A stretch of DNA of 60,830 nucleotides, the filler included, from Sphacelaria rigidula (Eukaryota): NCBI GenBank assembly GCA_964200075.2. It is 10 parts of 10 records of this genome, joined end to end, with 100 filler letters (N's around TTAATTAATTAA, not from the genome) between each part and the next. Parts side by side here need not be neighbours in the genome. Positions count along the whole stretch, not along the records: positions 18,281 to 24,273 come from CAXNAA020022951.1; 9 more parts are not named here. One strand, 5' to 3'. The notes beneath the pieces are model-generated. The model did not search any database. It had not been told where the DNA came from and saw only the letters and a program-made list of their open reading frames with translations. Made by a program: the position numbers and the translations under genes. Shown here in pieces: positions 5,946-58,370 of the stretch; within the stretch, counting starts at the first letter, position 1; each line of letters begins with the position of its first letter.

Positions 5946-5994
5946 GAGTCATCCTACGATAGGGGGGGGGTATTTTGGGCCATTTTTGCTCGAC
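5946..5994 (+). mobile_element. Terminal fragment of a GAGTCATCCTACGATAGGG-TIR MITE, truncated by the contig end
   Basis: GAGTCATCCTACGATAG(G)nTATTTTGGGCCA matches the start of the 21814-22062 element. Confidence 0.75.
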
Positions 5995-6094
5995 NNNNNN
6001 NNNNNNNNNNNNNNNNNNNNNNNNNNNNNNNNNNNNNNTTAATTAATTAANNNNNNNNNNNNNNNNNNNNNNNNNNNNNNNNNNNNNNNNNNNN
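5995..6094. other. Artificial contig-joining linker; the same linker occurs at 12088-12187, 18181-18280, 24274-24373, 30367-30466, 36460-36559, 42553-42652, 48646-48745 and 54739-54838
   Basis: Identical 100-nt N-run/TTAATTAATTAA/N-run (stops in all six frames) recurring every ~6093 nt; contig lengths are nearly identical, as expected for length-sorted contigs. Confidence 0.98.
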
Positions 6095-9977: not shown

Positions 9978-11653
9978 GGGACTTCAAAATTCTGTGCACA
10001 CACGCTGTAGCTTGGAGGGCTCTAGGAGGTCATTGAACATCATCGGATCTAAAAACGGATATCAGAGGATTGTAGATGATTTGGGTGGTTTGGCATCGGT
10101 ATACAACAACGAGAAGGAGATGAAGCTGCGCCAGGAGAACGATAAAATGGCGTGTATGATTCTCTTTTCTTAGTTCGAATATTTTTCTCCGTGTTACTCT
10201 GAAGTTGGCTGTTGAAATCATTGTGTGGGTTGAACACAGGCAACGATTACAATGAAGATAACCAATTTGTGAAGTATCGTGTGCGGAAGGTATGGTGAAA
10301 AAAAGGATCTCACGTTTTTTTTTAGTTTCTCTTTTCTAACTTGAACGTTTCGGGGCCGACCCCCCACTAACACGGGGTTGATCATGTGTTCGTGGAATAT
10401 TAAAAAATAAGTCAGGGAGCGACCTGCCCAATCACGGCGAGGCGAAATTCATCGACCAGACCCGAATGACCAGCTCGGGGACTGTTACCGAGAGTGATGC
10501 CACTGCAACGATCGTGTGGGGGGGGGGGGCTGTTTCTGGCCCAGAGAAGCCTTCCCACGTATAAAAATCCCGGATGCTCGGGAAATGGTTTCTCGTGGTA
10601 CTTGCAGTCAGCATACCGTTCCCGGGATTTCCGGGGAGCTTTTTTGAGTCACCAGCCGACACTAGAACGTAGTAATTGCACACAGGGTGAAGGGGGGGGG
10701 ACGGGAAATAGTGTACATGCCGCAACGTGGTCACTTTCACGAGGCACTAGAACCAGGTGGGCCGTGGAAAGACAAAAGAGCTATCGTCATGAATTCTGCC
10801 TTTCCCTCTGCCGACGCCTTGCAGAACACTGTAAACATGTATGTAGTGGGCGGGGATGAAGAAGCGGTAAATAGGCAGTTGCTCTCGGTACCTGAGAACT
10901 CCCCAGAACGTGCAAGGGAGTATGCAGAGGCACCTACTGCTGCAGTCGGAGAGGCGTACTGCACTGTACTGTCCTGCCTGTATGCACGTGTACCGCAACG
11001 CCCATAAGCTTCGAAGATAATTTGCCGCATGCGACAAACAGGGGAATGGCGGCCCATCGCGACCGCAAAGGGCTTTGTGGCAAGGTGAGGGGGACAACAA
11101 TATCATCCAAAGCCACAAGTGGCGGACGGCCCGCCGGTCGTCGCATACTGTCGAGAGCTCTCTCCGGCGACTCATACTGCTTGCTACGAGCTGGGGCAGC
11201 CTAGAAGCGAGTTTACAGTTCGCAGGCCCCTTCGTCGGCCAATATTCGAAGTTGGATCCTCAAATTTGGAATGGACAACACATAGGGCATGATGACGAGA
11301 ATTACCTCTACACAAAAAGTTATTCTCAATGAGTTAAGGGTGTTTTACTGAAACTGGTTATTGCCCTCAACTCATGAAAAACAAAAAACAAATTGTGCAA
11401 AAATGGGGGGTTTTATTATGCCCTATTCACTGTCCATACCAAATTTTAGGGTCTAACTCCAAACACTGGCCGACTGATGGGCCGTTTAGTATTATAACCG
11501 TGTCAGTAGAAAAAAATCGGAACAGTACTTTACAGGCCACTTACCGGCCCACGCGTGGTGTTCGTGTATTAAAATCTTCACACGTCGGACGAGCACGAGT
11601 GTGACTCGTGGCACTCGCACTGGTGGGGCTGCTCGTTGGCCGTAAAAGTAAGT

Positions 11654-11940
11654 AGGGCGAGGTCTCGAGTCATTGCTCGTTGTGGAAAAAAAATATATGG
11701 CGAGCACTCGAGTTATTGCTCGTTGTGAAGAAAACTAATAAGGCGAGCACTCGATTCATTGCTCATTGTGGAGAAAATTAATAGGGCGCGCACTCGAGTA
11801 ATTGCTCGTTGTGGAGAAAATTAGTAGGGCGCGCACTTGAGTCATCGCTCGTTGTGAAGAGAATGAGTAGGGCGAGCTCTCGAGTCATTGCTCGTTGTGG
11901 AAAAATTATTAGGGCGAGCACTCGAGTCATTGCTCGTGAT
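11654..11940. repeat. Minisatellite, about 7 copies of a ~43-bp unit (GGGCGAGCACTCGAGTCATTGCTCGTTGTGGARAAAATTARTA)
   Basis: Units start at about 11654, 11698, 11741, 11784, 11827, 11870 and 11912. Confidence 0.9.
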
Positions 11941-12187
11941 GAACGACTTGAGTGGAGGAGTCATCGATCCGAAGAGCAAACAGTTATAATGAGCTCTTCG
12001 ACGATCTTAAACCTAAAAGCTTCAAGTTAATATGCATATCTGCACATGTACAAGCGTCAAGCTCCAAAGCTCGTTTTCATTTTATCCNNNNNNNNNNNNN
12101 NNNNNNNNNNNNNNNNNNNNNNNNNNNNNNNTTAATTAATTAANNNNNNNNNNNNNNNNNNNNNNNNNNNNNNNNNNNNNNNNNNNN

Positions 12188-12229
<42 letters not shown>
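12188..12229. repeat. (AC)n microsatellite at contig start
   Basis: Read directly from the sequence. Confidence 0.95.
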
Positions 12230-13076: not shown

Positions 13077-14575
13077 AGGCGGTGTCTATATGGTGAAACC
13101 GACATTGCACTCTCACTTGAATGAATAGTGATTCCCATCAGACATGGTCGTCCGCGTCTGTCTGTTCGCGTTCAAAGTGGAGGGTTACAGTTGAAAAATT
13201 GAAAGTAGTCGGTCTTCGTTCTCAAAATCGTATGCATGTCCGTCGTTTTTTTCCGTCTCCCGTTCTTGCCCTCCCTTTTTTTTCGGAAATGATGAATCTT
13301 GGAACAAAAGGTGCCTATCTTCATTTCAGGTGAATCCCTGGGTGGAGCGCTGAGCATCTTGCTGGGCCTACACCTACAAGAGACAAATGTGAGTGTCTGA
13401 TATACATCAGGGCTTGCCATGCGACGGGAATATTACGGGATATATGTCGAGACGGGACGGAACGGGACGGGACGTGTCGCGTCCCGACACATAATCGAAT
13501 TTCGCGGGGTGACTGTACGATAGGGAGGGGGAGAAGGCAGCAGCAGGAAGCAGCGGCATGAGATGCAGCCTATCGGTCGCAGGTCCACAGTAAGGGTTTA
13601 GGTAGTAAGAAGCTTAGGGAGCGAATTAGGAGGGGAGGACCCTCCATGGCAGCAAAGTAAGCTTCCACCACACTAGATCAACACATGTACGGATCTGTTT
13701 CGGACCTCCCCTCCTCCCGTTTTTATCTCTTCATTTTATGTGAAGTGTTTGTTGCCGCACCCAGGGTAAGGGTGGGCATTCCGAACATGTCTCACAGAAC
13801 TGTCGGGTACCCGGTATGAGAGACTGGCATAACTCTCAGCGCTATGGGGTACGGGTAATAGCCCGGTAAATACCCCAGGTATCACCGAAAATAGTACTCT
13901 ACAGAACACAATATTTGAAGTTGTTTTGTTCTCGAGACTTGCCCTGTTGTCCGAAGCCACGGAGAATCTAAAGATCGCCTCTTTTGGCCCTGTCTTGTCG
14001 AGACCCCCAAAGTAACAAGCGTAGAACGAAACAAGCCTCTAGAAGCAGCGTGCTGATTGGTAGCCGCAACCATAGACCCGCCCGGCGACCAATCAACACG
14101 CTGCTTTTGGACGCTCGTTTCGTTCTACGCTTTTTTTTTTGGGGGGGGGGGGTCTCGATAAGGACACGACCTGAGCATGCGTACCCTCCTGTCCACTTGA
14201 TTCATGAAACGTCTTCGGAGATTTCATGATATGTGTTTCGCACCGATGACTGACCCCGGTGTACTTACCCCTAAACCGGACTGCTGATAACTTTCTTGTC
14301 ATTTCACACAGCACCCACTGCTGCCTCGATTCAAGGGGCAAGTGTTACTAGCCCCTGCGATTAAGGGCAACCCGCCGCCGGCGGTACTGGTCAATGTGCT
14401 GCGCTACCTCGTGGCTCCGCTTATTCCCAAGTGGCAGATCCCTTCCTGCCTCGAGTCAGGTGCGGTGCGGTGCGGTGCGGTGTGGACCGGTGGGAGATAT
14501 GTCTGATCCGTTTTATTTGTTTGATTCATGGAGTGATTGATTGAGTATTAATAGTTGATTTTTGCAAGGTCACGC

Positions 14576-14577
<2 letters not shown>

Positions 14578-14657
<80 letters not shown>
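14578..14657. repeat. Compound (GT)n(GA)n microsatellite
   Basis: Read directly from the sequence. Confidence 0.95.
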
Positions 14658-14662
<5 letters not shown>

Positions 14663-17860: not shown

Positions 17861-18280
17861 AGGAGGGAGGGGAGGATGTCTATCGATGATATGATTTGTG
17901 AGAAGGCTGGATGAGGCCGAGCTCGTTACCCTGTCGGAGGATCAGAAAACGGCTGGTCACTGCGGGCAGTCACGATTTGATGCACGGTTGACGGGTATGC
18001 GTTCTTTTGGTCGAGCTTGCATCTTGCCGTGACTCGCCTGATCGGTCCGTTGACCCACAGTGGTATGAAACAAGGGAGAGATTCATGCTACGATGGGAGG
18101 GAGAAAGGGGGGTGTACTCATGATCATGCATGCCATAGTCATCAGACCATTGACCTCGCATCCCTACAAAGCCGGGACGGNNNNNNNNNNNNNNNNNNNN
18201 NNNNNNNNNNNNNNNNNNNNNNNNTTAATTAATTAANNNNNNNNNNNNNNNNNNNNNNNNNNNNNNNNNNNNNNNNNNNN

Positions 18281-18407
18281 CTCATCCCGGAGTTAAACCT
18301 CAATTTGCACAATTTGTTGTTAAAGGTTATCTGATTGTATGCGGTGGAATTCGAACCCCCTACTCCGAGTTAACCGTTTCTGCGATGCACCAGTCACACC
18401 ACCGCGT
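18281..18407 (-). mobile_element. tRNA-derived SINE-like head
   Basis: Minus strand has A-box-like TGGTGTGACTGG and B box GGTTCGAATTCC at tRNA spacing; anticodon and acceptor stems are degenerate. Confidence 0.5.
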
Positions 18408-18789
18408 CGAGGCATCACGCCGACAATAAATCGCATCACGAGCAACATCTTGCGCACGGCAGCGCCCGTGAGGTCACGGGATTGAGTCTATTCCAGGTGC
18501 CCCCTTGGTACAGAATCAGACGACGTAGGTTTTGACCAGGTGTCACCACGTCCAAATCCCCGTCATAAGATAGAGAGAAAGTGCGGAGATGACAGCACCG
18601 TGATATCATGCCGAGATTTTTTTTCCACATGAAATCCGTGCTGCTGGACAACGCTCGGACAATCCCGCGTACCCCACCATGACCAGGATTGCGGAGTCCT
18701 TGCCAAGCGGGGGAAACGAGCTTTTAGTAGGGTTGTGGATGATGCCACTGTCTTCGTTTCGAGCCCACGTGCAACCCGCAATACTGCAG

Positions 18790-18888
18790 GAGAAACTCTA
18801 TGTTGAGCTGAAGAACATCCTGGGACGACAGCCTGGACCCGAGGTAGCCGAGCAGCTCGAGGTGTACCACGAAAACCTCAAGCATAAG
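18790..18888 (+). CDS. CFAP58: Cilia/flagella-associated protein 58 (CCDC147), penultimate exon
   Basis: ctgcag acceptor and gtatga donor, 99 nt. EKLYVELKNILGRQPGPEVAEQLEVYHENLKHK matches the conserved CFAP58 C-terminal EKLY.ELK.ILARQPGPE.AEQL motif as I recall it. Confidence 0.85.
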
Positions 18889-19636
18889 GTATGATGTACT
18901 GCAAGCCAAAAAAAAAAGGTAGCTTAACTGACGAGCCAAGATAGCCAGCAGCGAGTGGGCCTCGGTTACCGCACCAGCCTTGTCTTGACTCGAATTTCGA
19001 GAATTCAGGTGGTGCAAGCTCAGTGGTTGCTACCGATCGCACGACCTCGTCCCCCCCCCCCAACACACGCACTTTGTTTGCGATATGTGAGTGTTCTGTT
19101 GTGGTATCAAAACCTTGTCTCAGTTGATTTTAACGTCGAGCAAAACGAAACCTGCAACAGGACTACACAACGAGGTTAAAATAAACAGGGTGGGATAACC
19201 CGTCACACGGGCATGCATGGATACATGATCGCGTAGATGTATCGAGAAACCTGCTTCTTCCTCATTTTCTTTATCAGAATATGGACATGATATCATCTCG
19301 CAATACTGCAGCTGCTCTATGTGGTTCTACTGTACTGGTGCACACACACCCGCTCTCTACGCATGCGAACTGCGGGATGACCTACGACTTCCACCTTAGA
19401 TCCATGCCCACGAGGTACACATCTATTCCCATGGCAATCTTGACTGCATCTGAACCGACACATTATAGACAGATGAGGACAGCTATTTCTTGCCACAGTC
19501 CGTGTGAGCGATCAGACGACAAATGGCTTGCGGCGATGATGTGCAAACAAGCCAACCGATGCAAGTTTCGCGAGCGTTGCTCGATCCTTGCCCTTTTGTG
19601 CACTAACCACATGACAACGCGATACATCGGGCACAG

Positions 19637-19897
19637 GTAAAACAAATGAAGGCGATGGAAACGGAGTTGGGCATGTACAAGCAACAAGTAGATCTGTTCA
19701 AGTGCGAGATAGAGAGGTCTGCGGAGACCATGAGAGCGCTGCATCAAAAATGGATAGCCGACCAAAGGCGTGCAGACAGGCAGACGGGCAAGCAATCCGC
19801 TAGTGCTTGGGACTCCTCCGGAGCGGGGACGATCACTGTGATGCAGCCAGACGAAAGCTCGGCCACGAACAACAGTAACAATCTCGAAGGAGGTTGA
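19637..19897 (+). CDS. CFAP58: CFAP58 terminal exon
   Basis: cacag acceptor, phase 0. VKQMKAMETELGMYKQQVDLFKCEIER... continues the CFAP58 coiled coil to a TGA stop. Confidence 0.8.
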   Translation, partial: VKQMKAMETELGMYKQQVDLFKCEIERSAETMRALHQKWIADQRRADRQTGKQSASAWDSSGAGTITVMQPDESSATNNSNNLEGG

Positions 19898-21199
19898 CGA
19901 GGGGGGGAGAGCTCCAGGCGATGTTGGAATTAGTTCGTTGAGGATCCTCGTTCGTTGCACAGTTTGTGGCATTTTGTCCAAAGACAAGTGATAGAGAGAG
20001 AGAGGTATACCTACGAAACGTGACCAAAAGGGGTACTACTGTAGAGTAGATTTGGGGAGATTTGGACTATGCCGGTCGGTATGGGTTGAGAGAAAGCCCG
20101 GTTCTGTGTCAGGTAGCCGTTGTGGATTTTCGGGTGTCATTTTTCAGCGCAGAAAACATGCGGGGCTCAGTCAACGTCCAGCGCAGTTGCAGCAGGACGG
20201 GTGGTTCACCATCACAACTGTACCGAATTGTGCTCTGCCAACACACGCTATGGTCCACGAGTTGGTAGGATGAAGCTGCTTCAACAGCGATCAACGCTTG
20301 CTATTCGGATAGTTCTCGTCGATTGAAATTTGAATACAGTACTCTTGTGCAGCTGTTGCACTCGCGTGTCGACGTTCAGCATGCTTCCCGAGCATTATGT
20401 GTCGCGCGAAAACAAAGGTGTGTGCGACAATCCATGAAGGCGAGTTTTCGTCAACGCCCGGGATGCCGAGTATCATCATAATACTCCAAGCATTACCACA
20501 GGCTACGTAGCTTCCAGTTCCCTTGGTGTTGATGGGAAATAACAAACCCTCTTTTGTTCCAACAGTTTTGGTCCTCTCTTCTAGAGCGCATCATTGTCGC
20601 GTGTCCTGAGCGTACGTGCATATTATACGTTAGCAAACATACCACATTGTCGACGTGCTGCTACTTATCGAGCAAGCCGCAAGGGCGACTCAATTCACCT
20701 CTATTTCTTCCGCCGCGCCCGTTGCACAGTCCGGGTTGGAAGTAGTTACAGAAAACGTTGACGCCTTACGTGGAAATCCCGAGCTGCATGAACGCTCTCG
20801 TTCACTCCCGGTACTTGTCTCTCGTGCCGGTTCCTTGCTTGCTGTAGATTAACACCCGCGATCCTCGACAGCACACCGGTTGCCCTGGTGGTCAAGTTGT
20901 TCATGTACCGTCGAAGTCCGGAGCAGCGGGTAGGATCGCCTGTGCTACTGGTAAGGTTGGCTCCAGTTGTCAGCCACACGTGAAAGGCGCCACTGACGAT
21001 CAACTTGAGCAATATCGTTCTGATCCCGTGCCAGCCTCGTCGTTGTCGTTCAAGAACTGTGTGATGGTACGGTAGGGGTGCACGAATATTTTCTAAGGTT
21101 AGAATTGTCAGGGGTCCTTCATCTCATCCAAAACACAGCATATGAAATATGAAAAAGCACGCCAAGAGATTACTGTTCCAATGTGCTAGAAATATTCAA

Positions 21200-24100
21200 C
21201 AATATACAACAATATACAACAATATACAACAATGGAGCGAGACCACGCCGGACAATGGAGCAACCTGCGACAGTAAACATACCAGGCCCGCCAGAACCTC
21301 GATGTCACACGAGCGAAGACCATACAGCTCCAACTTTGGAGCGTTCGAGCTTCGTGGTCTTCGCTCGTGTGGCATCGAGGTCCTGCCGGACCTGGTATGT
21401 TTGCCGCCGCAGGTTGCTCAAATGTCCGGCGTGCTCTCGCTCCATGGTTGCCACCCGATCGTCCACCCTTCCCACCACCTCCCCACAGAACAGTGGGGCG
21501 GAGATGGGAAAGGTCGACGACCGGGTAACAACAATGGAGCGAGAGCACACCGGACAACTGAGCAACCTGCCACGGCAAATATACCAGGTCCGGCAGAACC
21601 TCCATGTCACACGAGCGAAGACCACGGAGCTCCAACTTTGCAGCGTTGGAGCTCCATGGTCTTCGCCAGTGTGGCATCGAGGTCCGGCCGGACCTGGTAT
21701 GTTTGCCGTCGCAGGTTAGTCCATTGTCCGGCGTGCTTTTGCTCCATGGTTACCACCCGATCGTCCACCCTTCCAACCTCCTCTCCACAGACCGGTGGTG
21801 CGGAGGTGGGAAAGAGTCCCCCTACGAGAGGGGGGGGGGGTATTTTGGGCCACTTTTTGCACGAAATTCCAAGGCAAATCGCCGATGAAATCAGCAACGG
21901 TTGCTCCAACGAGCTTGTTATAGATACATAACACTCATTCATACCGATTGACACCGTTTTGAACCACATACAAGCGAATCGCGAGTGTTGCAGGTCATCT
22001 GACACATTTTTCAGCATTTTTTTTCATGCAATCAAATACCCCTCCCTATCGTAGGATGACTCATAAGGTGACCAACCACGTAACCTCAATGGAGCGAGAG
22101 CACGACGAACAATTGGCCAACCTGCCACGGCAAACATACCAGGTCCAGCAGGACCTCGATGTCACACGAGCGAAGACGACGGAGCTCCGATACTGGAGCG
22201 TTCGAGCTCCGTGGTCTTCGCTCGTGTGGCATCGAGGTCCTGCCGGACCTGGTATGATCGTCGTGGCAGGTTGATCAATTGTCCGGCGTGCTCTCGCTGC
22301 ATGGTCGTCACCCAATCGTCCACCCTTCCCACCTCCTCCCCACCGGTCTGTGGGGTGGAGGCGGGAAGGATGGACAACCGGGTGACAACCATGGGGCAAG
22401 AGCACGCCGGACAATCAACCAACCTACCACGGCAAACATACCAGACCCGCCGGAACCTCCATGTTACACGAGCGGAGACCACGGAGCTCCACCTTTGGAG
22501 CATTGGAGCTCCGTGGTCTTCGCTCGTGTGACATCGAGGTTCTGCCGGACCTGGTATGTTTGCCGTCGCTGGTTGCTCAAATGTCGGGCGTGCTCTCGCT
22601 CCATAGTTGCCACCCGGTCGTCGATCCTTCCCACCTCCTCTTCACAGACGGATGAGGCGGAGATGGGAAAGGTCGACAAAAGATAAAAGTTGGAGCTCTG
22701 TCATCTCCCCTCGTGTGACAACGAGGTCCTACCGGACGTGGTATGTTTACCGTCGCAGGTTGGTCAATTGTCCGGCGTACTCTCGCTCCATGGTCGCCAC
22801 CCGGTCGTCGACGCTTCCCACCTCCGCCTCACAGACCCGTTGGTCGGAGGTGGGGGGACTGGACGACGGGGTAACAACAATGGAGCGAGAGCACGCCGGA
22901 CAACCAATCAACATACCAGCTGCGGCAGGACCTCGATGTCATACGAGCGGAGACCACGGAGCTCCACGTTTGGAGCGTTGGAGCTCCGTGGTCTTCGCCC
23001 GTGTGGCATCGAGGTTCTACTGGACCTGGTATGTTCGCCTTCGGATGTTGCTTGGTTGTCCGGCGTGCTCTCGCTGCATGGTCGCCAACCCGATCGTCGA
23101 CCCTTACGACTACCTTCCCACAGACCGGTGGGGCGGAGGCGGGAAGGATGGACAACCGGGTGACAACCATGGGGCAAGAGCACACCGGACAATCAACCAA
23201 CCTACCACGGCAAACATACCAGGCCCGCCAGGACCTCGATGCCACACGAGCGGAGACCACGGAGCTCCAATACTGGAGCATTGGAGCTCCGTGGTCCCCG
23301 CTCGTGTGACATCGAGGTCCTGCCGGACCTGGCATGTTTGCCGTCGCAGGTCGCTCGATTGTCCGGCGATCTCTTGTCATATTAGTGTTATCCGGTCGCC
23401 GACCCTCCCCACCACCTCCCAGCAGACCGGTGCGACGGAGGTGGGGAGGTTGAACGATCGGGTAGCAACAATGGAGCGAGAGCACGCCGGACAGTTGAGC
23501 AACCTGCCATGGCAAACATACCAGCTCCGGCAGGACCTTCATGTCACACGGGCGAAGACCACGGAGCTCCAGTACTGGAGCGTTGGAGCTCCATGGTCTC
23601 CGCCCGTAGGGCATCGCGATCTTGTCGGACCTGGTATGTTTGCCGTGGGAGGTTGCTTGGTTGTTCGGCGTGCTCTCGCTGCATGGTCGCCAACCCGATC
23701 GTCGACCCTTCCCGTCACCTCGCCACAGACCGGTGGGGCGGAGGCGGGAAGGATGGACAACCGGGTAGCAACCATGGGGCAAGAGCACGCCGGACAATCA
23801 ACCAACCTACCACGGCAAACATATCAGGCCCGCCGGAACCTTCATGTTACACGAGCGGAGACCACGGAGCTCCACCTTTGGAGCATTGGAGCTCCGTGGT
23901 CTTCGCTCGTGTGACATCGAGGTTCTGCCGGACCTGGTATGTCTGCCGTCGCTGGTTGCTCAAATGTCGGGCGTGCTCTCGCTCCATAGTTGCCACCCGG
24001 TCGTCGATCCTTCCCACCTCCTCTTCACAGACGGATGAGGCGGAGATGGGAAAGGTCGACAAAAGATAAAAGTTGGAGCTCCGTCAGCTTCCCTCGTGTG

Positions 24101-24273
24101 ACAACGAGGTCCTGCCGGACCTGGTATGTTTGCCGTCGCAGGTTGGTCAATTGTCCGGCGTACTCTCTCTCCATGGTCGCCACCCGGTCGTCGACGCTTC
24201 CCACCTCCGCCTCACAGACCCGTTGGTCGGAGGTGGGGGGACTGGACGACGGGGTAACAACAATGGAGCGAGA
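21200..24273. repeat. Fold-back satellite-like array of alternately inverted ~150-bp monomers (~300-bp period), running off the contig end
   Basis: The forward arm CAATGGAGCGAGAGCACGCCGGACAA...GAAGACCACGGAGCTCCAA is followed by its reverse complement, repeatedly. Forward arms occur near 21230, 21532, 22088, 22389, 22879, 23167, 23470, 23772 and 24261. Confidence 0.92.
21814..22062. mobile_element. Complete 249-bp MITE with ~30-bp TIRs (GAGTC...GACTC) inserted in the fold-back array
   Basis: GAGTCCCCCTACGAGAG(G)nTATTT ... AAATACCCCTCCCTATCGTAGGATGACTC; the host monomer resumes on both sides. Confidence 0.8.
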
Positions 24274-24373
24274 NNNNNNNNNNNNNNNNNNNNNNNNNNN
24301 NNNNNNNNNNNNNNNNNTTAATTAATTAANNNNNNNNNNNNNNNNNNNNNNNNNNNNNNNNNNNNNNNNNNNN

Positions 24374-24480
24374 GGAATGGCGCGAAAGTTGCGTGGATAC
24401 CCCTTGGACCAGCGGTCAACTTTTTTCTCCCTATCGGGCAATCAGGCCGAAGAAATCGTGGATTTGGTGATTCGTAGTCG
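24374..24480 (-). mobile_element. Fragment of the CANGGGTCGG-TIR transposon family
   Basis: Reverse complement of about 16190-16295. Confidence 0.7.
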
Positions 24481-25577
24481 TGTCGACTCGTCCTGACTGT
24501 GGATGGTTTGGATCCTCCGGCGTGGTGTTTACTTCAACAGCAACATGTTCCACTTGCGTGCAACTTGTGCATTATCATGTGTGTACACAAATGAGTAGAG
24601 TCTGCGCTGACACGATCTGCGGATGGCTGATGAGCCCCAAGAACAGGTGTCAGTATCCAAAGAGGTGACTCACATCGCCAACTCCGCACATCCCACCAAA
24701 CGTGGCATAAGATACATGATGATCGCCGCGGTGACGGATTTACGAGGATCTACAGCAGGGTCTGGGTGCGTTCACGCCATGGTCTCTTTTTGCCGGCGGA
24801 AATTGCGGCACGGACGCACTGCCAGCAGTCTCGTGCTATCCTCACGCGTGTCTCTCTACAGCAGCTTTCACTTATGTCTGCCAGCAGCATCAAACTGTCT
24901 GTACTGTCCGTAACCGCCACAGCTGGCGACGGTGAAATCCCGGAGGCTGGGTGCGATCATGTGCAGCTGCTGTACAGCGACTGATCAGACCCAGGCAAGG
25001 AACATCTGTGTATTACAGAACGCAAAGCACACGGCGTGGCCTCCACGGCTTCACTGGCCGATCCACGCGGCGTCCTTTCCAGTGCAGTAGAGGATTCCAG
25101 CGCATCTGTTACCATGGTGTAGTTCACGGCAGCGTCTAATATTGCATGCAACTGTTGCCCCTAGTTCGTCCTCTTTGCCCTCCTCTCACGCATCAGTTCA
25201 GTACCAGGGTACAGCAGTATGGTCAGCAGTGGTGTGGTTGAGTAAATCCATATCTCTTGACAAAAACCAGAAACCGGGAGTCCGAAAAATACGAGATGAC
25301 CACAATGTGCCACACAGCCAACGATACTCTACAGAGTAAGCCTAGAGAAGAAGCATACCCAGTACCTCTGGCCCACCCTATTTTGTGATTTAGTCACCGA
25401 ACCTTCAACTAGGCAGGACCGGACAACGTTTGCTCACCAATTCCTTTGCACGCCCCCTCCCATTTCTAAATCTGAGATATTTTCTGCCGGAAGAAAATTT
25501 CATCTGGGGCGTCCAATGCGCCGGGTACTTTCTCAAGACAGCTAGTCGATCGTGTCCTGCTGGTGCTCTTCCGGCAG

Positions 25578-35954: not shown

Positions 35955-36125
35955 GTGCGGAAATGGGTGCAAGAAGGTTTTTCGTTTCCTTGCGGCGCAA
36001 CCAGCTCCACTCCCCCCCGTTCCAAGGATATAGGTGTAGGTGCGGGTTAGGGTCCAGCCGCCGATGAGGTCCCTCGGGCACGGGTTGTTGTTGAAGTAAC
36101 GTTTGAGTTTTCTTCGTAATTTTTG

Positions 36126-36331
36126 CAAGGGCAGGTTGAGTAGAGTATACTCAATTGCGAGGTGATTTAAAAGTCGTACTTGAAGTACACAGATTGGGGG
36201 TAGGGGACTGGGGGATCGCTTTCCAGTTATTCTCTGAGTACGACTTTTAACACTCTACCCTAGTTTGAGTACCTCAAGTTCATATTTCACAATGCCCCGC
36301 AATTGAGTATACTCTGCTCGACCTGCTCTTG
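36126..36331. mobile_element. 206-bp MITE with ~34-bp TIRs and an 8-bp TSD (P- or hAT-like)
   Basis: CAAGGGCAGGTTGAGTAGAGTATACTCAATTGCG ... CGCAATTGAGTATACTCTGCTCGACCTGCTCTTG; flanks AATTTTTG / AAATTTTG (7 of 8 match). Confidence 0.85.
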
Positions 36332-39300
36332 AAATTTTGCCCTGGTCATGTCTAGTCCTGCTATTGTTTTTCATTTTGTGTCGTACTGTGTTATTTTGAC
36401 CGCCCCCCTCCCCCCCCCCCCCCCCTCCCCCCCCCCCCCCCCCCCTTCCACCCTCTGTCNNNNNNNNNNNNNNNNNNNNNNNNNNNNNNNNNNNNNNNNN
36501 NNNTTAATTAATTAANNNNNNNNNNNNNNNNNNNNNNNNNNNNNNNNNNNNNNNNNNNNCGGATATCTGCCCCGTACAAACGCCACGGGGCTGTGCGGAT
36601 TGACAAACCGCACCGTGATAATCCGAACCGCGGTTCGGGTTGTCCTCCGTACACATCCCTGGAAATAACGTCCTCTTCTCCGGCCTTCTTGTTCGACATG
36701 GAAAAGAGTAAGCCCGTACAAGATCGCGGCGTTCTAAAGTGTGATTTCAGCGCCTTCTGGTGCCTGTTCGAAAGCCCGGATGGTTCTCTCGTCTACCTTG
36801 ACGATCGGTCTACATGATGGTGCCTCTGTTTCCGATCTCTGAGAGGCCAAGTTCTCTTTTTAGAATGTTCTGAGCATGTTCGTGTGAACCCCACCCCAAC
36901 GTTTTTTCAAATTCTGGAATATACATCCTGGTTTCCTACAGGCTTGGCCTGAACAATGAACGGTTAAGCCAACGCACCCTGAACAATGGTTTTATTCCCT
37001 GTCTCGCTGAAACGATCGGCCGTATTTACGTTTTCAATGCCATTACATCTTGCAGAGCTACAGGGTGTCATCAGGTGTCCACGGTGGGCCACGTAAAAGG
37101 AGGCACCGATTTCATCAATTGGCTGGCTCTCAAAAAATTGCTTTATTTTTCTCGGATGCCGTTGGATCGACGAAATGGACAAAGTACATTATTTCCACGG
37201 GTAAGGGGTTCAACCTACATTACGGTAGCATGAGCTATACAGTCCGTCGTCCACGCCAACTATAGGAACTAGAGAATCACCCAGGATCTGAGAAAAAGCT
37301 AACGATCTGGTGCTACAGAGCAATGGTACGGTAGAGGTGCACTTTTTTCGCGATTTTTTGTCTGGTTCAGGGGCTCCTAACGATTCTCGACGCACAATAA
37401 TATGGGTCAGGGCATCCCCGTTTGCAAATTCATTCGGGATATCCCCAGCACATTGGAATAGTAATCCTGTCGTACTCTCGCATATTTTCATTGGTCGTGT
37501 TTTGGATTAGATAAAGGGCTCCTAACAGTTCTAACCTCAGAAAATATGTGTGTACCCCTACCATAGCATCACTCCACACGGACGTGTTATCTAGTGCAGC
37601 CGGAGCATGAAATCACTGACTGATAGTGTATCTACGGAAGGACTGGATAGACTCTCCCGACCGCGCGTCTGAGCATACATGTTGTACATTTATTGTCAAA
37701 TTTTGCTACAGTGGTGTTTCACTGTTGAAGGCGAAAAGAGTGAAGAAACAAAGAATATACGGGGGACATTCCCAACCCAGTCCGAAACAGCGTAAGGACG
37801 CCATGCGTATCTCTGAGCCGCACTCCACGACACGTGCGGGGGTCCATGCGGGAGTCCATGCGGGGTTCATATTTGGAGTACGGCATTCGCAGTTCACGGC
37901 ACGTACGGCACGGTACGGGTGATGTACGGTACGCACGGCACGGTATCAGGGAATCGCCGTACAGCAGTTCACGGTATTTGATTGATAACTTTTCGATACC
38001 TTAGTACGGTGCGGTGCTGGATTTCGCATATTTGTGTCGAGTCGCGGTTCCGTCCCATATACCGTGATACACAGCGGCAACATGAAGGCGAAAAACGCTC
38101 CGAGGGGGGGGGGGCTGCACTTTCCCGTGGACGGCATTTGAAGGTGTCCAAAACTATTGCTGATTCCTTTGCGCTCGTTTGAGATGTGGTCGTCGATATT
38201 AGAGCACAGACGTGTTCAAAATGCAACAAACAACAAAAATTGGCGCTTGGTTATTTACAAACATTGGCTGCGGGCCCACGATGTAGCCTCTGCGCTGAGA
38301 TGAGTTCGTCGCTTTGAACTGGGTTGTGTATACCGTCAGATATTCCCTGCATCACGAAGGTCAACAAATCTGAAAATTCCCCACGAGGAGCTGTGATCTG
38401 GCGCAGATCATATAGGGACATGTCCCTCGGCATACGAAACCTCAGCAACGATCGGAAGCCCCAATATGGAAACCAATTTGGAGTGGGTTCACCGCTGCAC
38501 GTTGTGATTAAGTCGGTGTGAAAAGTTTCTCCAAAGATGGGGCAAGGGTTGTGCGATCAGCATTATCAGGTCCTACTTTTTCGGGTCGTTTGTCTATGCG
38601 AGTGCTGATGGGACACGTCGTGTTTTAGCATTGAAGTAGCTATCGTTGCACAAGTTACGCCTCGCTGTAGACTTCGCGTTGTTCAAAGTCTAGAGCTAGC
38701 TGTATCAGCATGTATTGCAGGCGATGCGGCAAAAATGGATCACAACGTCGCCGCGTGATCATTTATGGGAGTTTCATCAATCAGGGGCGGAATGGGGGAA
38801 ATATCTACCAAGCGGTCCCTGTTTTGTGGTTGAGCGCCGATTTTCGTCGAGATGAAGCACTTGCTTAGCATGTGAAATCTCCTCGGGAAACCTTGTTGTA
38901 CGTGTCTTGCGTGTAAACTCGGTGTGAAACGGACGAGCAGTCGGCCACGTAAGGGCGTGATCGACCGGGAACTACACTACTGTGGATCTCTGTAATCAAC
39001 GATCACCATACAACAGCAGCGATTGCTCGAGGTAACCTGACTGCCTGAGACACCCTCTATTCTCGTGAAATGCAGCAGTGGCATACATACGCTCACGGAT
39101 AAACACCGATCATTTATTGTTGAAGGCCCGATAACTGCGTAGATGAAGCACCTGTTTGGCGGGTAGCTTGAACACCATTCGCGTTCTTGCTCACGACCAT
39201 ACGGTCTGTTACCACGAGCAACCACCTGCGGCATTATATTTTCCTCTTATGTATCAACGCGGATAGCTTTGTTGTTGTCTTTTATCTTCCCAGGAAGGAT

Positions 39301-57911: not shown

Positions 57912-58089
57912 AATCAGTAGTGGTAGTGGCAGTGGTGGTAGTATTATCATCATTATTACCATGATATTATTACTATCACTATCATCATCATCACCACCCT
58001 TATTGCTATCATTACTTATGTCATAATTATCAAAATTTGTTATTAAAAGCATCATGATCATTGTCATCATTGATCCTTATCATCATCAC

Positions 58090-58125
<36 letters not shown>

Positions 58126-58370
58126 TGTCATCATCATCGTCATTGTTATATTTTTTTTAATATTACCATTATATTTTTATAATCAATATCATCATCATCA
58201 CCACCCTTATTGTTATCATTTGTCATTATCATCAAGATTTGTTATTAACAGCATCATGATCATTGTCATTATTTATTATCATTGTTATTATCATCATCGT
58301 CATCATCATCATTGTAATATTTGAATATTATTACTATCATCGTCTTCGTTATTATCATCACTATTACTAT
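57912..58370. repeat. Degenerate (ATC/ATT)n low-complexity tract with an internal duplication
   Basis: Read directly; ATTTGTTATTAA.AGCATCATGATCATTGTCAT occurs twice. Confidence 0.9.

Follow-up and report, generated by a model that had tools for sequence, protein, structure and literature searches.

A tandem array with a palindromic 302-bp unit in the genome of Sphacelaria rigidula

The window analysed here is a 60,830-nucleotide stretch of the genome of the brown alga Sphacelaria rigidula (assembly GCA_964200075.2), and it contains an array of alternately inverted repeats at positions 21226-24273. Repeat searches, arm comparison and read contigs suggest that the array is probably a genuine non-coding tandem repeat of the nuclear genome, satellite-like and of low to moderate copy number, with a palindromic unit of 302 bp that was founded by one old inversion and then multiplied by tandem amplification. 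The alternation of the arms is regular over the whole array. Forward and reverse arms have diverged into two distinguishable groups, and all recent duplications are direct.

Sequence and read data

The window consists of ten pieces of 5993 bp, and the joints between them are spacers of the form N44-TTAATTAATTAA-N44 (positions 5995-6094, 12088-12187, 18181-18280, 24274-24373 and so on). The array lies in the fourth piece (18281-24273, from record CAXNAA020022951.1) and reaches the last base of that piece. What looks like a feature running off a contig end may be no more than a cut. DNA evidence was also drawn from short-read contigs of four public runs, which were placed on the array piece; one run carries the label "algae metagenome". 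Run X4 was produced in a study other than that of X1 and X3; X1 to X3 are possibly the source of the assembly itself, and hence not independent of it. The depth of the single-copy flank was about 24 in X1, 11-14 in X3 and 29-33 in X4.

Organization of the array

Tandem Repeats Finder reported a period of 302 at 21226-21814 (2.0 copies, 87% matches) and a period of 303 at 22910-24052 (3.8 copies, 78% matches). A repeat search recovered a 300-nt unit in 8 copies, spaced by 302 or 303 where the array is uninterrupted, which shows head-to-tail repetition of the unit. The search also found 58 inverted pairs in the array, such as 21228-21486 with 21493-21751, which are 84% complementary and 6 nt apart. 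In an ungapped symmetry scan, 12 centres came out at exact intervals of 151 nt, and their complementarity is 67-85% over 140 nt; elsewhere in the window (~57 kb) the same scan gave a mean of 24.3% and a maximum of 57%, and no centre reached 60%.

A hidden Markov model profile of the arm gave 21 matches, all within 21226-24274, whose strands alternate strictly (+,-,+,-). Full or nearly full arms account for 18 of these matches (10 reverse and 8 forward), and the remaining 3 are forward arms truncated to 27-55 nt. No match was found in the other nine pieces (~54 kb). The arms align over 151 columns, and each unit contains two subunits in opposite orientation, as in satellites with inversely oriented subunits. 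The 302-bp unit thus has two opposed 151-nt subunits around a short non-palindromic spacer (GGAGCTCC AAC-TTTGGAGC-GTT GGAGCTCC), and it is a decayed palindrome. Conservation within the arm, measured in blocks of 10 nt, is fairly even (73-94%), and no conserved motif stands out among these blocks.

Two types of symmetry centre alternate along the array. The type-1 centre, GGAGCTCC-(about 14 nt)-GGAGCTCC, occurs at 8 sites, and the type-2 centre, CACAGA|CCGGTG, occurs at 10 sites. The latter is no more than the junction formed when the palindromic unit repeats head-to-tail; in a tandem array of a palindromic unit, two alternating centres arise automatically. The non-palindromic type-1 loop has the same polarity at all 8 centres, and the type-2 loop has the same polarity at 9 of 10.

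These results largely bear out the preliminary description of this DNA, which had reported head-to-head and tail-to-tail repetition, two fixed centres and a period of ~300 bp. The monomer was put at ~146 bp there, and the measured arm is 151 nt. The place given for the array (21200 to 24273) was right except for its start, which is at 21226, after a microsatellite at 21191-21233. It was also said to continue past the contig end: the array, at least 3.05 kb long and cut at the piece end, does run to the last base, and this end may be a natural end or a cut. The array had been called the most unusual architecture in the window, the other 57 kb of which hold nothing comparable, and the general remark that most satellites are head-to-tail is true here too at the level of the 302-bp unit.

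Divergence of the arms and growth of the array

For comparison, the arms were all turned to one orientation and aligned. Pairwise identity is mostly 72-90%, and values of 91-99% occur in recent direct copies only. Identity averaged 82.1% among the 28 forward-forward pairs, 82.6% among the 45 reverse-reverse pairs and 78.7% among the 80 forward-reverse pairs, and six alignment columns tell forward arms from reverse arms. Adjacent inverted arms are 74-83% identical, which is no higher than for forward-reverse pairs overall. There is no sign of gene conversion, or of selection, keeping the hairpins paired. The arms are old.

A tree of forward versus reverse arms, which had been proposed earlier as a check, was built without the 8-10 nt next to the loop, and the arms clustered by orientation. 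The orientation label needs 2 changes on this tree, compared with a mean of 6.1-6.2 after shuffling; none of 500 shuffles was as low. All five well-supported clades have a single orientation: R4+R9, R6+R8, R5+R10, F4+F9 and F7+(F4,F9), where F and R denote forward and reverse arms numbered as in Table 1.

Recent duplications are all direct, and their offsets are 605 or 1383 bp. The latest event is the 1383-bp direct duplication, in which 557 of 581 positions are identical (95.9%) between 22310-22890 and 23693-24273; between its two copies as delimited in Table 1, identity is 94-100% in most 50-nt bins. One type-2 loop, at 22346.5, is flipped, yet the arm beside it, F4, shares 95% identity with F9, whose loop has the usual polarity. 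This 8-nt change is a minute hairpin-loop inversion. Together, the same-orientation clades, the fixed differences between forward and reverse arms, the loop polarity and the direct duplications point to an old inverted dimer that was amplified head-to-tail. Recent growth was direct, and it was growth of a fixed dimer.

Contigs across the array

Parts of the array occur in independent read sets. The step from the flank into the first arm is contained in contigs of X1 (20890-21321) and X3 (20997-21321), with 0 differences each, and in an X4 contig (20890-21382) with 2 differences, which also extends 44 letters past the centre at 21338.5. Another X4 contig (21688-21848) crosses the centre at 21791.5 together with the junction between the array and a MITE (miniature inverted-repeat transposable element), and the centre at 22835.5 is crossed by contigs of X1 (22786-22898) and X4 (22733-22898). 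Most contigs on the array are short, and none of them spans it. The array is genuine DNA and not an artefact.

Features of the array

The coordinates of the arms and of the later changes are listed in Table 1. In arm F5 about 115 nt have been deleted, including half of a type-1 centre.

Table 1. Arms, insertion, deletions and duplication in the array, in window coordinates.
Feature	Position	Strand	Evidence
(AATATACAAC)4.3 microsatellite; left array edge, overlaps first bases of arm F1	21191-21233	.	Tandem Repeats Finder
Arm F1, without first ~38 nt (profile positions 39-151)	21226-21338	+	alignment, profile
Arm R1 (type-1 centre 21338.5; type-2 centre 21489.5)	21339-21489	-	symmetry scan, alignment, profile
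Arm F2	21490-21640	+	alignment, profile
Arm R2	21641-21791	-	alignment, profile
Arm F3, first 22 nt, split off by MITE	21792-21813	+	sequence, profile
MITE-like insertion, 249 bp, terminal inverted repeats GAGTC...GACTC, foreign to repeat unit	21814-22062	.	sequence
Arm F3, remainder (resumes at profile position 22 at 22066)	22066-22195	+	profile
Arm R3	22196-22346	-	alignment, profile
Type-2 centre at 22346.5, flipped loop CACCGG|TCTGTG	22339-22354	.	centre comparison
Arm F4	22347-22497	+	alignment, profile
Arm R4	22498-22648	-	alignment, profile
Arm F5, reduced to 31 nt (22649-22679) plus 12-nt filler AAAAGATAAAAG	22649-22691	+	sequence, alignment, profile
Arm R5	22692-22835	-	alignment, profile
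Arm F6, 14-nt internal deletion	22836-22972	+	alignment
Arm R6	22973-23123	-	alignment, profile
Arm F7	23124-23275	+	alignment, profile
Arm R7	23276-23426	-	alignment, profile
Arm F8	23427-23577	+	alignment, profile
Arm R8	23578-23728	-	alignment, profile
Arm F9	23729-23880	+	alignment, profile
Arm R9	23881-24031	-	alignment, profile
Arm F10, 31 nt (24032-24062) plus 12-nt filler AAAAGATAAAAG; copy of 22649-22691	24032-24074	+	sequence, alignment
Arm R10	24075-24218	-	alignment, profile
Arm F11, cut by piece end	24219-24273	+	sequence, profile
Direct duplication, first copy, 1383-bp offset; partner 23713-24273	22330-22890	+	self-comparison

Coding potential and copy number

The array contains open frames of 435 amino acids on the plus strand and 322 amino acids on the minus strand, and a further frame of 260 amino acids. 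None of these frames matches a Pfam family, and the 435-residue frame has no homologue at E <= 0.001 among 7356 candidates (proteins of 239-762 amino acids). The variability of the arm columns shows no codon-phase or third-position periodicity (p = 0.64). A coding reading of these frames was rejected on these three grounds. The long frames are probably a by-product of repeating a stop-poor, GC-rich (64%) unit, in which CpG occurs at its expected frequency (15 versus 15.0). No Rfam family or transfer RNA was found in the window. The searches of Pfam, of homologues, of periodicity and of Rfam were thus all negative, and the array is non-coding, as satellites are.

The unit shows no similarity to the MITE, to the neighbouring element at 21057-21197 or to the rest of the window. 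Exact-pattern scans of metagenome and viral contigs gave 0 loci; such scans need 23-28 specified bases to be exact, and diverged relatives are missed. The summed depth of contigs over the array, a rough measure that is not a copy number, was 88-513 in X1, 50-519 in X3 and 65-481 in X4, which corresponds to about 2-40 times the single-copy level. Since most arms are less than 90% identical to each other, this depth points to between a handful and a few dozen more near-copies beyond the piece, in the rest of the array or at a few other loci, and not a major satellite.

Surroundings and a possible mobile-element origin

The gene in the flank was recognized by its best matches, to Ectocarpus proteins, on the plus strand: 18787-18891 corresponds to residues 767-801 (86%), and 19613-19837 to residues 795-871 (52% identity). 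The matched proteins have 924-931 amino acids and carry PF21771 (CFAP58_CC, the CFAP58 central coiled-coil domain). Judged by this homology, 18787-18891 and 19613-19897 are the last exons of a CFAP58-like gene for a cilia- and flagella-associated coiled-coil protein, which points to a brown alga or a near relative as the host. The frame closes at 19897; the array follows downstream, at a distance of at least 1.1 kb from the last exon.

Between the gene and the array is a truncated high-copy element (21057-21197), which adjoins the array and has a summed depth of about 22,000-25,000 in X1, about 1000 times single copy; a relative with 81% identity is present at 37447-37572 on the minus strand. 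In X3 and X4, contigs return from 21197 to 21063 across 29 intervening letters, which suggests that this element also exists elsewhere in tandem copies of ~164 bp. The MITE inside the array belongs to a very high-copy family. Its summed depth is about 52,000-102,000, compared with about 24 for single copy in X1, and it is thousands-fold in three runs. The termini of this MITE recur at 1-51 and 5946-5993, where the first piece of the window begins and ends inside such copies. The MITE has a G-run in its inverted repeats, and its flanks, where a target-site duplication was sought, read AAA and ATAA.

Other repeats were also observed in the window. The highest summed depth (~263,000 in X1, as a 200-nt-bin average) is at 18281-18322, with many differing continuations; the first ~42 nt of the array piece are the end of a very abundant repeat. 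Solitary inverted-repeat elements, foldback- or MITE-like, were found at 14004-14145, 11225-11483 and 36123-36334; their arms are 63-77 nt long and 75-86% complementary, and by the arm profile they are unrelated in sequence to the array. A 43-bp minisatellite at 11644-11937 (6.7 copies, 81% matches) can also be read with periods of 86 and 129 bp. Simple repeats are (AC)21 at 12188-12229, (GT)20 followed by (GA)20 at 14578-14658, a 43-nt C run at 36403-36453 and (CAT)31 at 58050-58143.

This setting raises the question of whether the array came from a mobile element, either as a tandemized foldback-type MITE of ~300 bp or as a block of repeats in the interior or at the end of a larger foldback transposon. 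Hairpin-forming elements and elements with terminal inverted repeats are abundant here, as shown by the MITE within the array and the three solitary elements, and the array abuts a truncated high-copy element. The 10 nt that separate the perfect halves GGAGCTCCAA and TTGGAGCTCC might be the relic of a junction, and tandem arrays derived from MITEs or foldback elements are documented in the excerpts of two papers (PMC12628747, PMC4079207). However, the other nine pieces contain no copy of the arm, and the depth of the array is far below the thousands-fold depth of the MITEs at this locus. The array starts 38 nt inside an arm, beside a microsatellite and not at a centre, with no recognizable left terminus; neither a target-site duplication nor a transposase was seen, and the unit does not resemble the neighbouring elements. 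A mobile origin is considered unlikely. It concerns the origin of the unit, and it is compatible with later growth by tandem amplification.

Structure potential

When folded as single-stranded DNA, the unit is predicted to form a long imperfect hairpin on either centre, with energies of -106.4 and -112.1 kcal/mol (z = -13.2 and -14.6); none of 100 shuffled sequences folded as well. A stretch of 1196 nt folded as RNA is predicted to form stacked long hairpins (-859.8 kcal/mol). For individual arms, no structure of their own was predicted (z from -1.15 to +2.31). The strong predicted folds follow from the layout of the DNA, which they restate.

The array might be an active structure-forming locus, with hairpins or cruciforms in vivo, the flipped loop at 22346.5 as their footprint, and hairpin-derived small RNAs when it is transcribed. 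It would then be the first dyad-symmetric satellite or hairpin-RNA-type locus described in brown algae. The folds themselves are predictions that repeat the layout. This reading was judged improbable. Among the possibilities named in the preliminary description, a cruciform-forming structural satellite fits best, in that the array is a tandem array with a dyad-symmetric unit; the cruciform and hairpin folds are predicted only.

A more specific possibility is a hairpin-RNA or small-interfering-RNA locus, in which a fold-back transcript is diced into small RNAs. The RNA fold predicted for the 1196-nt stretch would be consistent with this, and small-RNA pathways are present in brown algae according to an excerpt of PMC4513859. 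On the other side, the stems are just 74-83% complementary, and adjacent arms pair no better than distant arms, so that pairing is not preserved. Single arms show no excess structure, there is no Rfam match, and the array lies 3' of the stop codon of the neighbouring gene. Contigs of run X6, taken by guess to be RNA, were found on the MITE, on the element at 21057-21197, and on the last exon of the gene and downstream of it (19635-20077). On the array, this run touched just a 21-letter side of one joint, which is no cover and carries no weight either way. A small-RNA locus has no support and is mildly disfavoured, the lack of preserved pairing being some evidence against a selected structure; its chance was rated as quite small.

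Discussion

Taken together, the array can be explained by few steps. A single inverted duplication, by fold-back, template switch or a foldback element, would have produced the dimer. Head-to-tail amplification of the dimer, by ordinary unequal exchange or slippage during replication and in steps of 302 bp or multiples of it, would have come next, and the copies would then have drifted to ~80% identity. The MITE insertion, two internal deletions, the minute loop inversion and the recent 1383-bp direct duplication would have followed later. The founding inversion was probably a single event, and the decay of the copies suggests neutrality and absence of function.

Several points weigh against this explanation. 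How many units there are over the 3 kb, and in which order, is known only from the assembly and from short contigs. On the tree, near-copies inflate the clustering of forward and reverse arms, and 10 of 15 inner branches, the deep ones, are open. The flipped loop shows that there has been some hairpin- or arm-mediated exchange. The consensus arm has one stop triplet per strand, which makes the unit stop-poor, and 99.8% of first-order random sequences have no frame as long as the one of 435 residues. Because its right end lies outside the piece, the array might belong to a larger foldback transposon or a macro-palindrome.

Two further explanations concern how the inverted copies arose. According to the first, growth of the array continues through repeated template switching or fold-back priming, with a new inverted copy in each round. 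The preliminary description had offered iterative template switching as a possible source, and as a mode of growth it is contradicted by the direct duplications, the fixed differences between forward and reverse arms and the single loop polarity. The inverted type-2 loop beside an arm that is 95% identical to its paralogue does suggest some arm exchange or hairpin processing. However, no well-supported clade mixes forward and reverse arms, no recent duplication is inverted, and the loops, rather than being made afresh at every turn, keep their sequence and polarity. A single ancient inversion with tandem amplification after it suffices, so repeated template switching is not needed, and we regard it as very improbable.

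According to the second, which the preliminary description had named as what would overturn its account, the inversions come from chimeric fold-back molecules made during assembly or amplification. Palindromes are a known product of amplification chimeras, and the array contigs are mostly short; however, fold-back chimeras would have identical arms, whereas the arms here differ by 10-27% outside recent direct copies and in a fixed way between orientations, the contigs of the second study (X4) cross three centres and the MITE junction, and the array contains a MITE insertion, deletions and a diverged duplication, so that an artefact is already largely refuted and its chance is close to nil.

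The preferred explanation, one old inversion followed by tandem amplification, means that an apparently exotic, alternately inverted array can stem from ordinary tandem growth. The array can be read as a small natural record of how palindromic DNA ages: its pairing decays, a loop flips, bases near the centres are deleted and a transposable element inserts. It has no evident consequence for the organism. It also calls for caution, since hairpin-rich arrays can come from DNA layout alone.

Whole-unit palindromic tandem repeats are uncommon, and a narrow literature search found none from brown algae. The literature comparisons given here refer to excerpts of the cited papers. A curated Ectocarpus transposable-element paper (PMC12477816) uses neither foldback nor palindrom-, hairpin or MITE as a word. 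The centromeres of brown algae are reported to be without satellite DNA (bioRxiv 10.64898/2025.12.07.692804), and a centromeric role of the array is therefore unlikely.

MITE- or foldback-derived tandem arrays include Xstir and miDNA4 of Xenopus (PMC12628747) and the TIR-220 repeats of Tetris in Drosophila virilis (PMC4079207). These arrays share with the Sphacelaria array hairpin-forming units, a kilobase-sized satellite-like arrangement and a setting of transposable elements. They differ in that no solo copies, element termini or target-site duplications were found for the Sphacelaria array within the window. Moreover, the tandem repeats of Tetris are direct within each terminal inverted repeat, whereas the arms here are alternately inverted. 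By analogy with these cases, a MITE- or foldback-type origin would be plausible.

Multi-kilobase inverted sub-arrays are described in Tribolium as macro-dyad symmetries (PMC13081366, PMC12581902). They resemble the present array in that long hairpins or cruciforms are possible and the inversion points are conserved. However, they invert between direct sub-arrays at a scale of kilobases to tens of kilobases, whereas the present array inverts every 151 nt within its unit.

The closest likeness is to satellites with long inverted segments inside the monomer, dyad symmetries that were termed "not so common" (PMC13081366). TmSat2 of Tribolium madens has a 704-bp monomer with imperfect inverted repeats of ~300 bp, which form a palindrome-like sequence of ~600 bp (PMC13081366); the 1061-bp satellite of Tribolium brevicornis has inverted segments of ~470 bp (PMC13081366); and the 385-bp satellite of Trichogramma brassicae has inverted repeats of 80 bp (PMC13081366, PMC12581902). 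Like the Sphacelaria array, these satellites have a head-to-tail unit with long imperfect inverted segments, a predicted monomer-wide hairpin or cruciform, a non-coding sequence and higher-order duplications. Unlike in these satellites, the symmetry of the Sphacelaria unit spans the whole unit (2 x 151 of 302 bp), and every junction is a centre. The array also looks low-copy instead of being a major (peri)centromeric satellite, its host is a stramenopile, and there is no sequence similarity. The layout is rare but already described, and the array, with no sign of function, is a new example of an uncommon repeat kind: in its head-to-tail repetition, its opposed subunits and its non-coding sequence, it fits the satellites with inversely oriented subunits.

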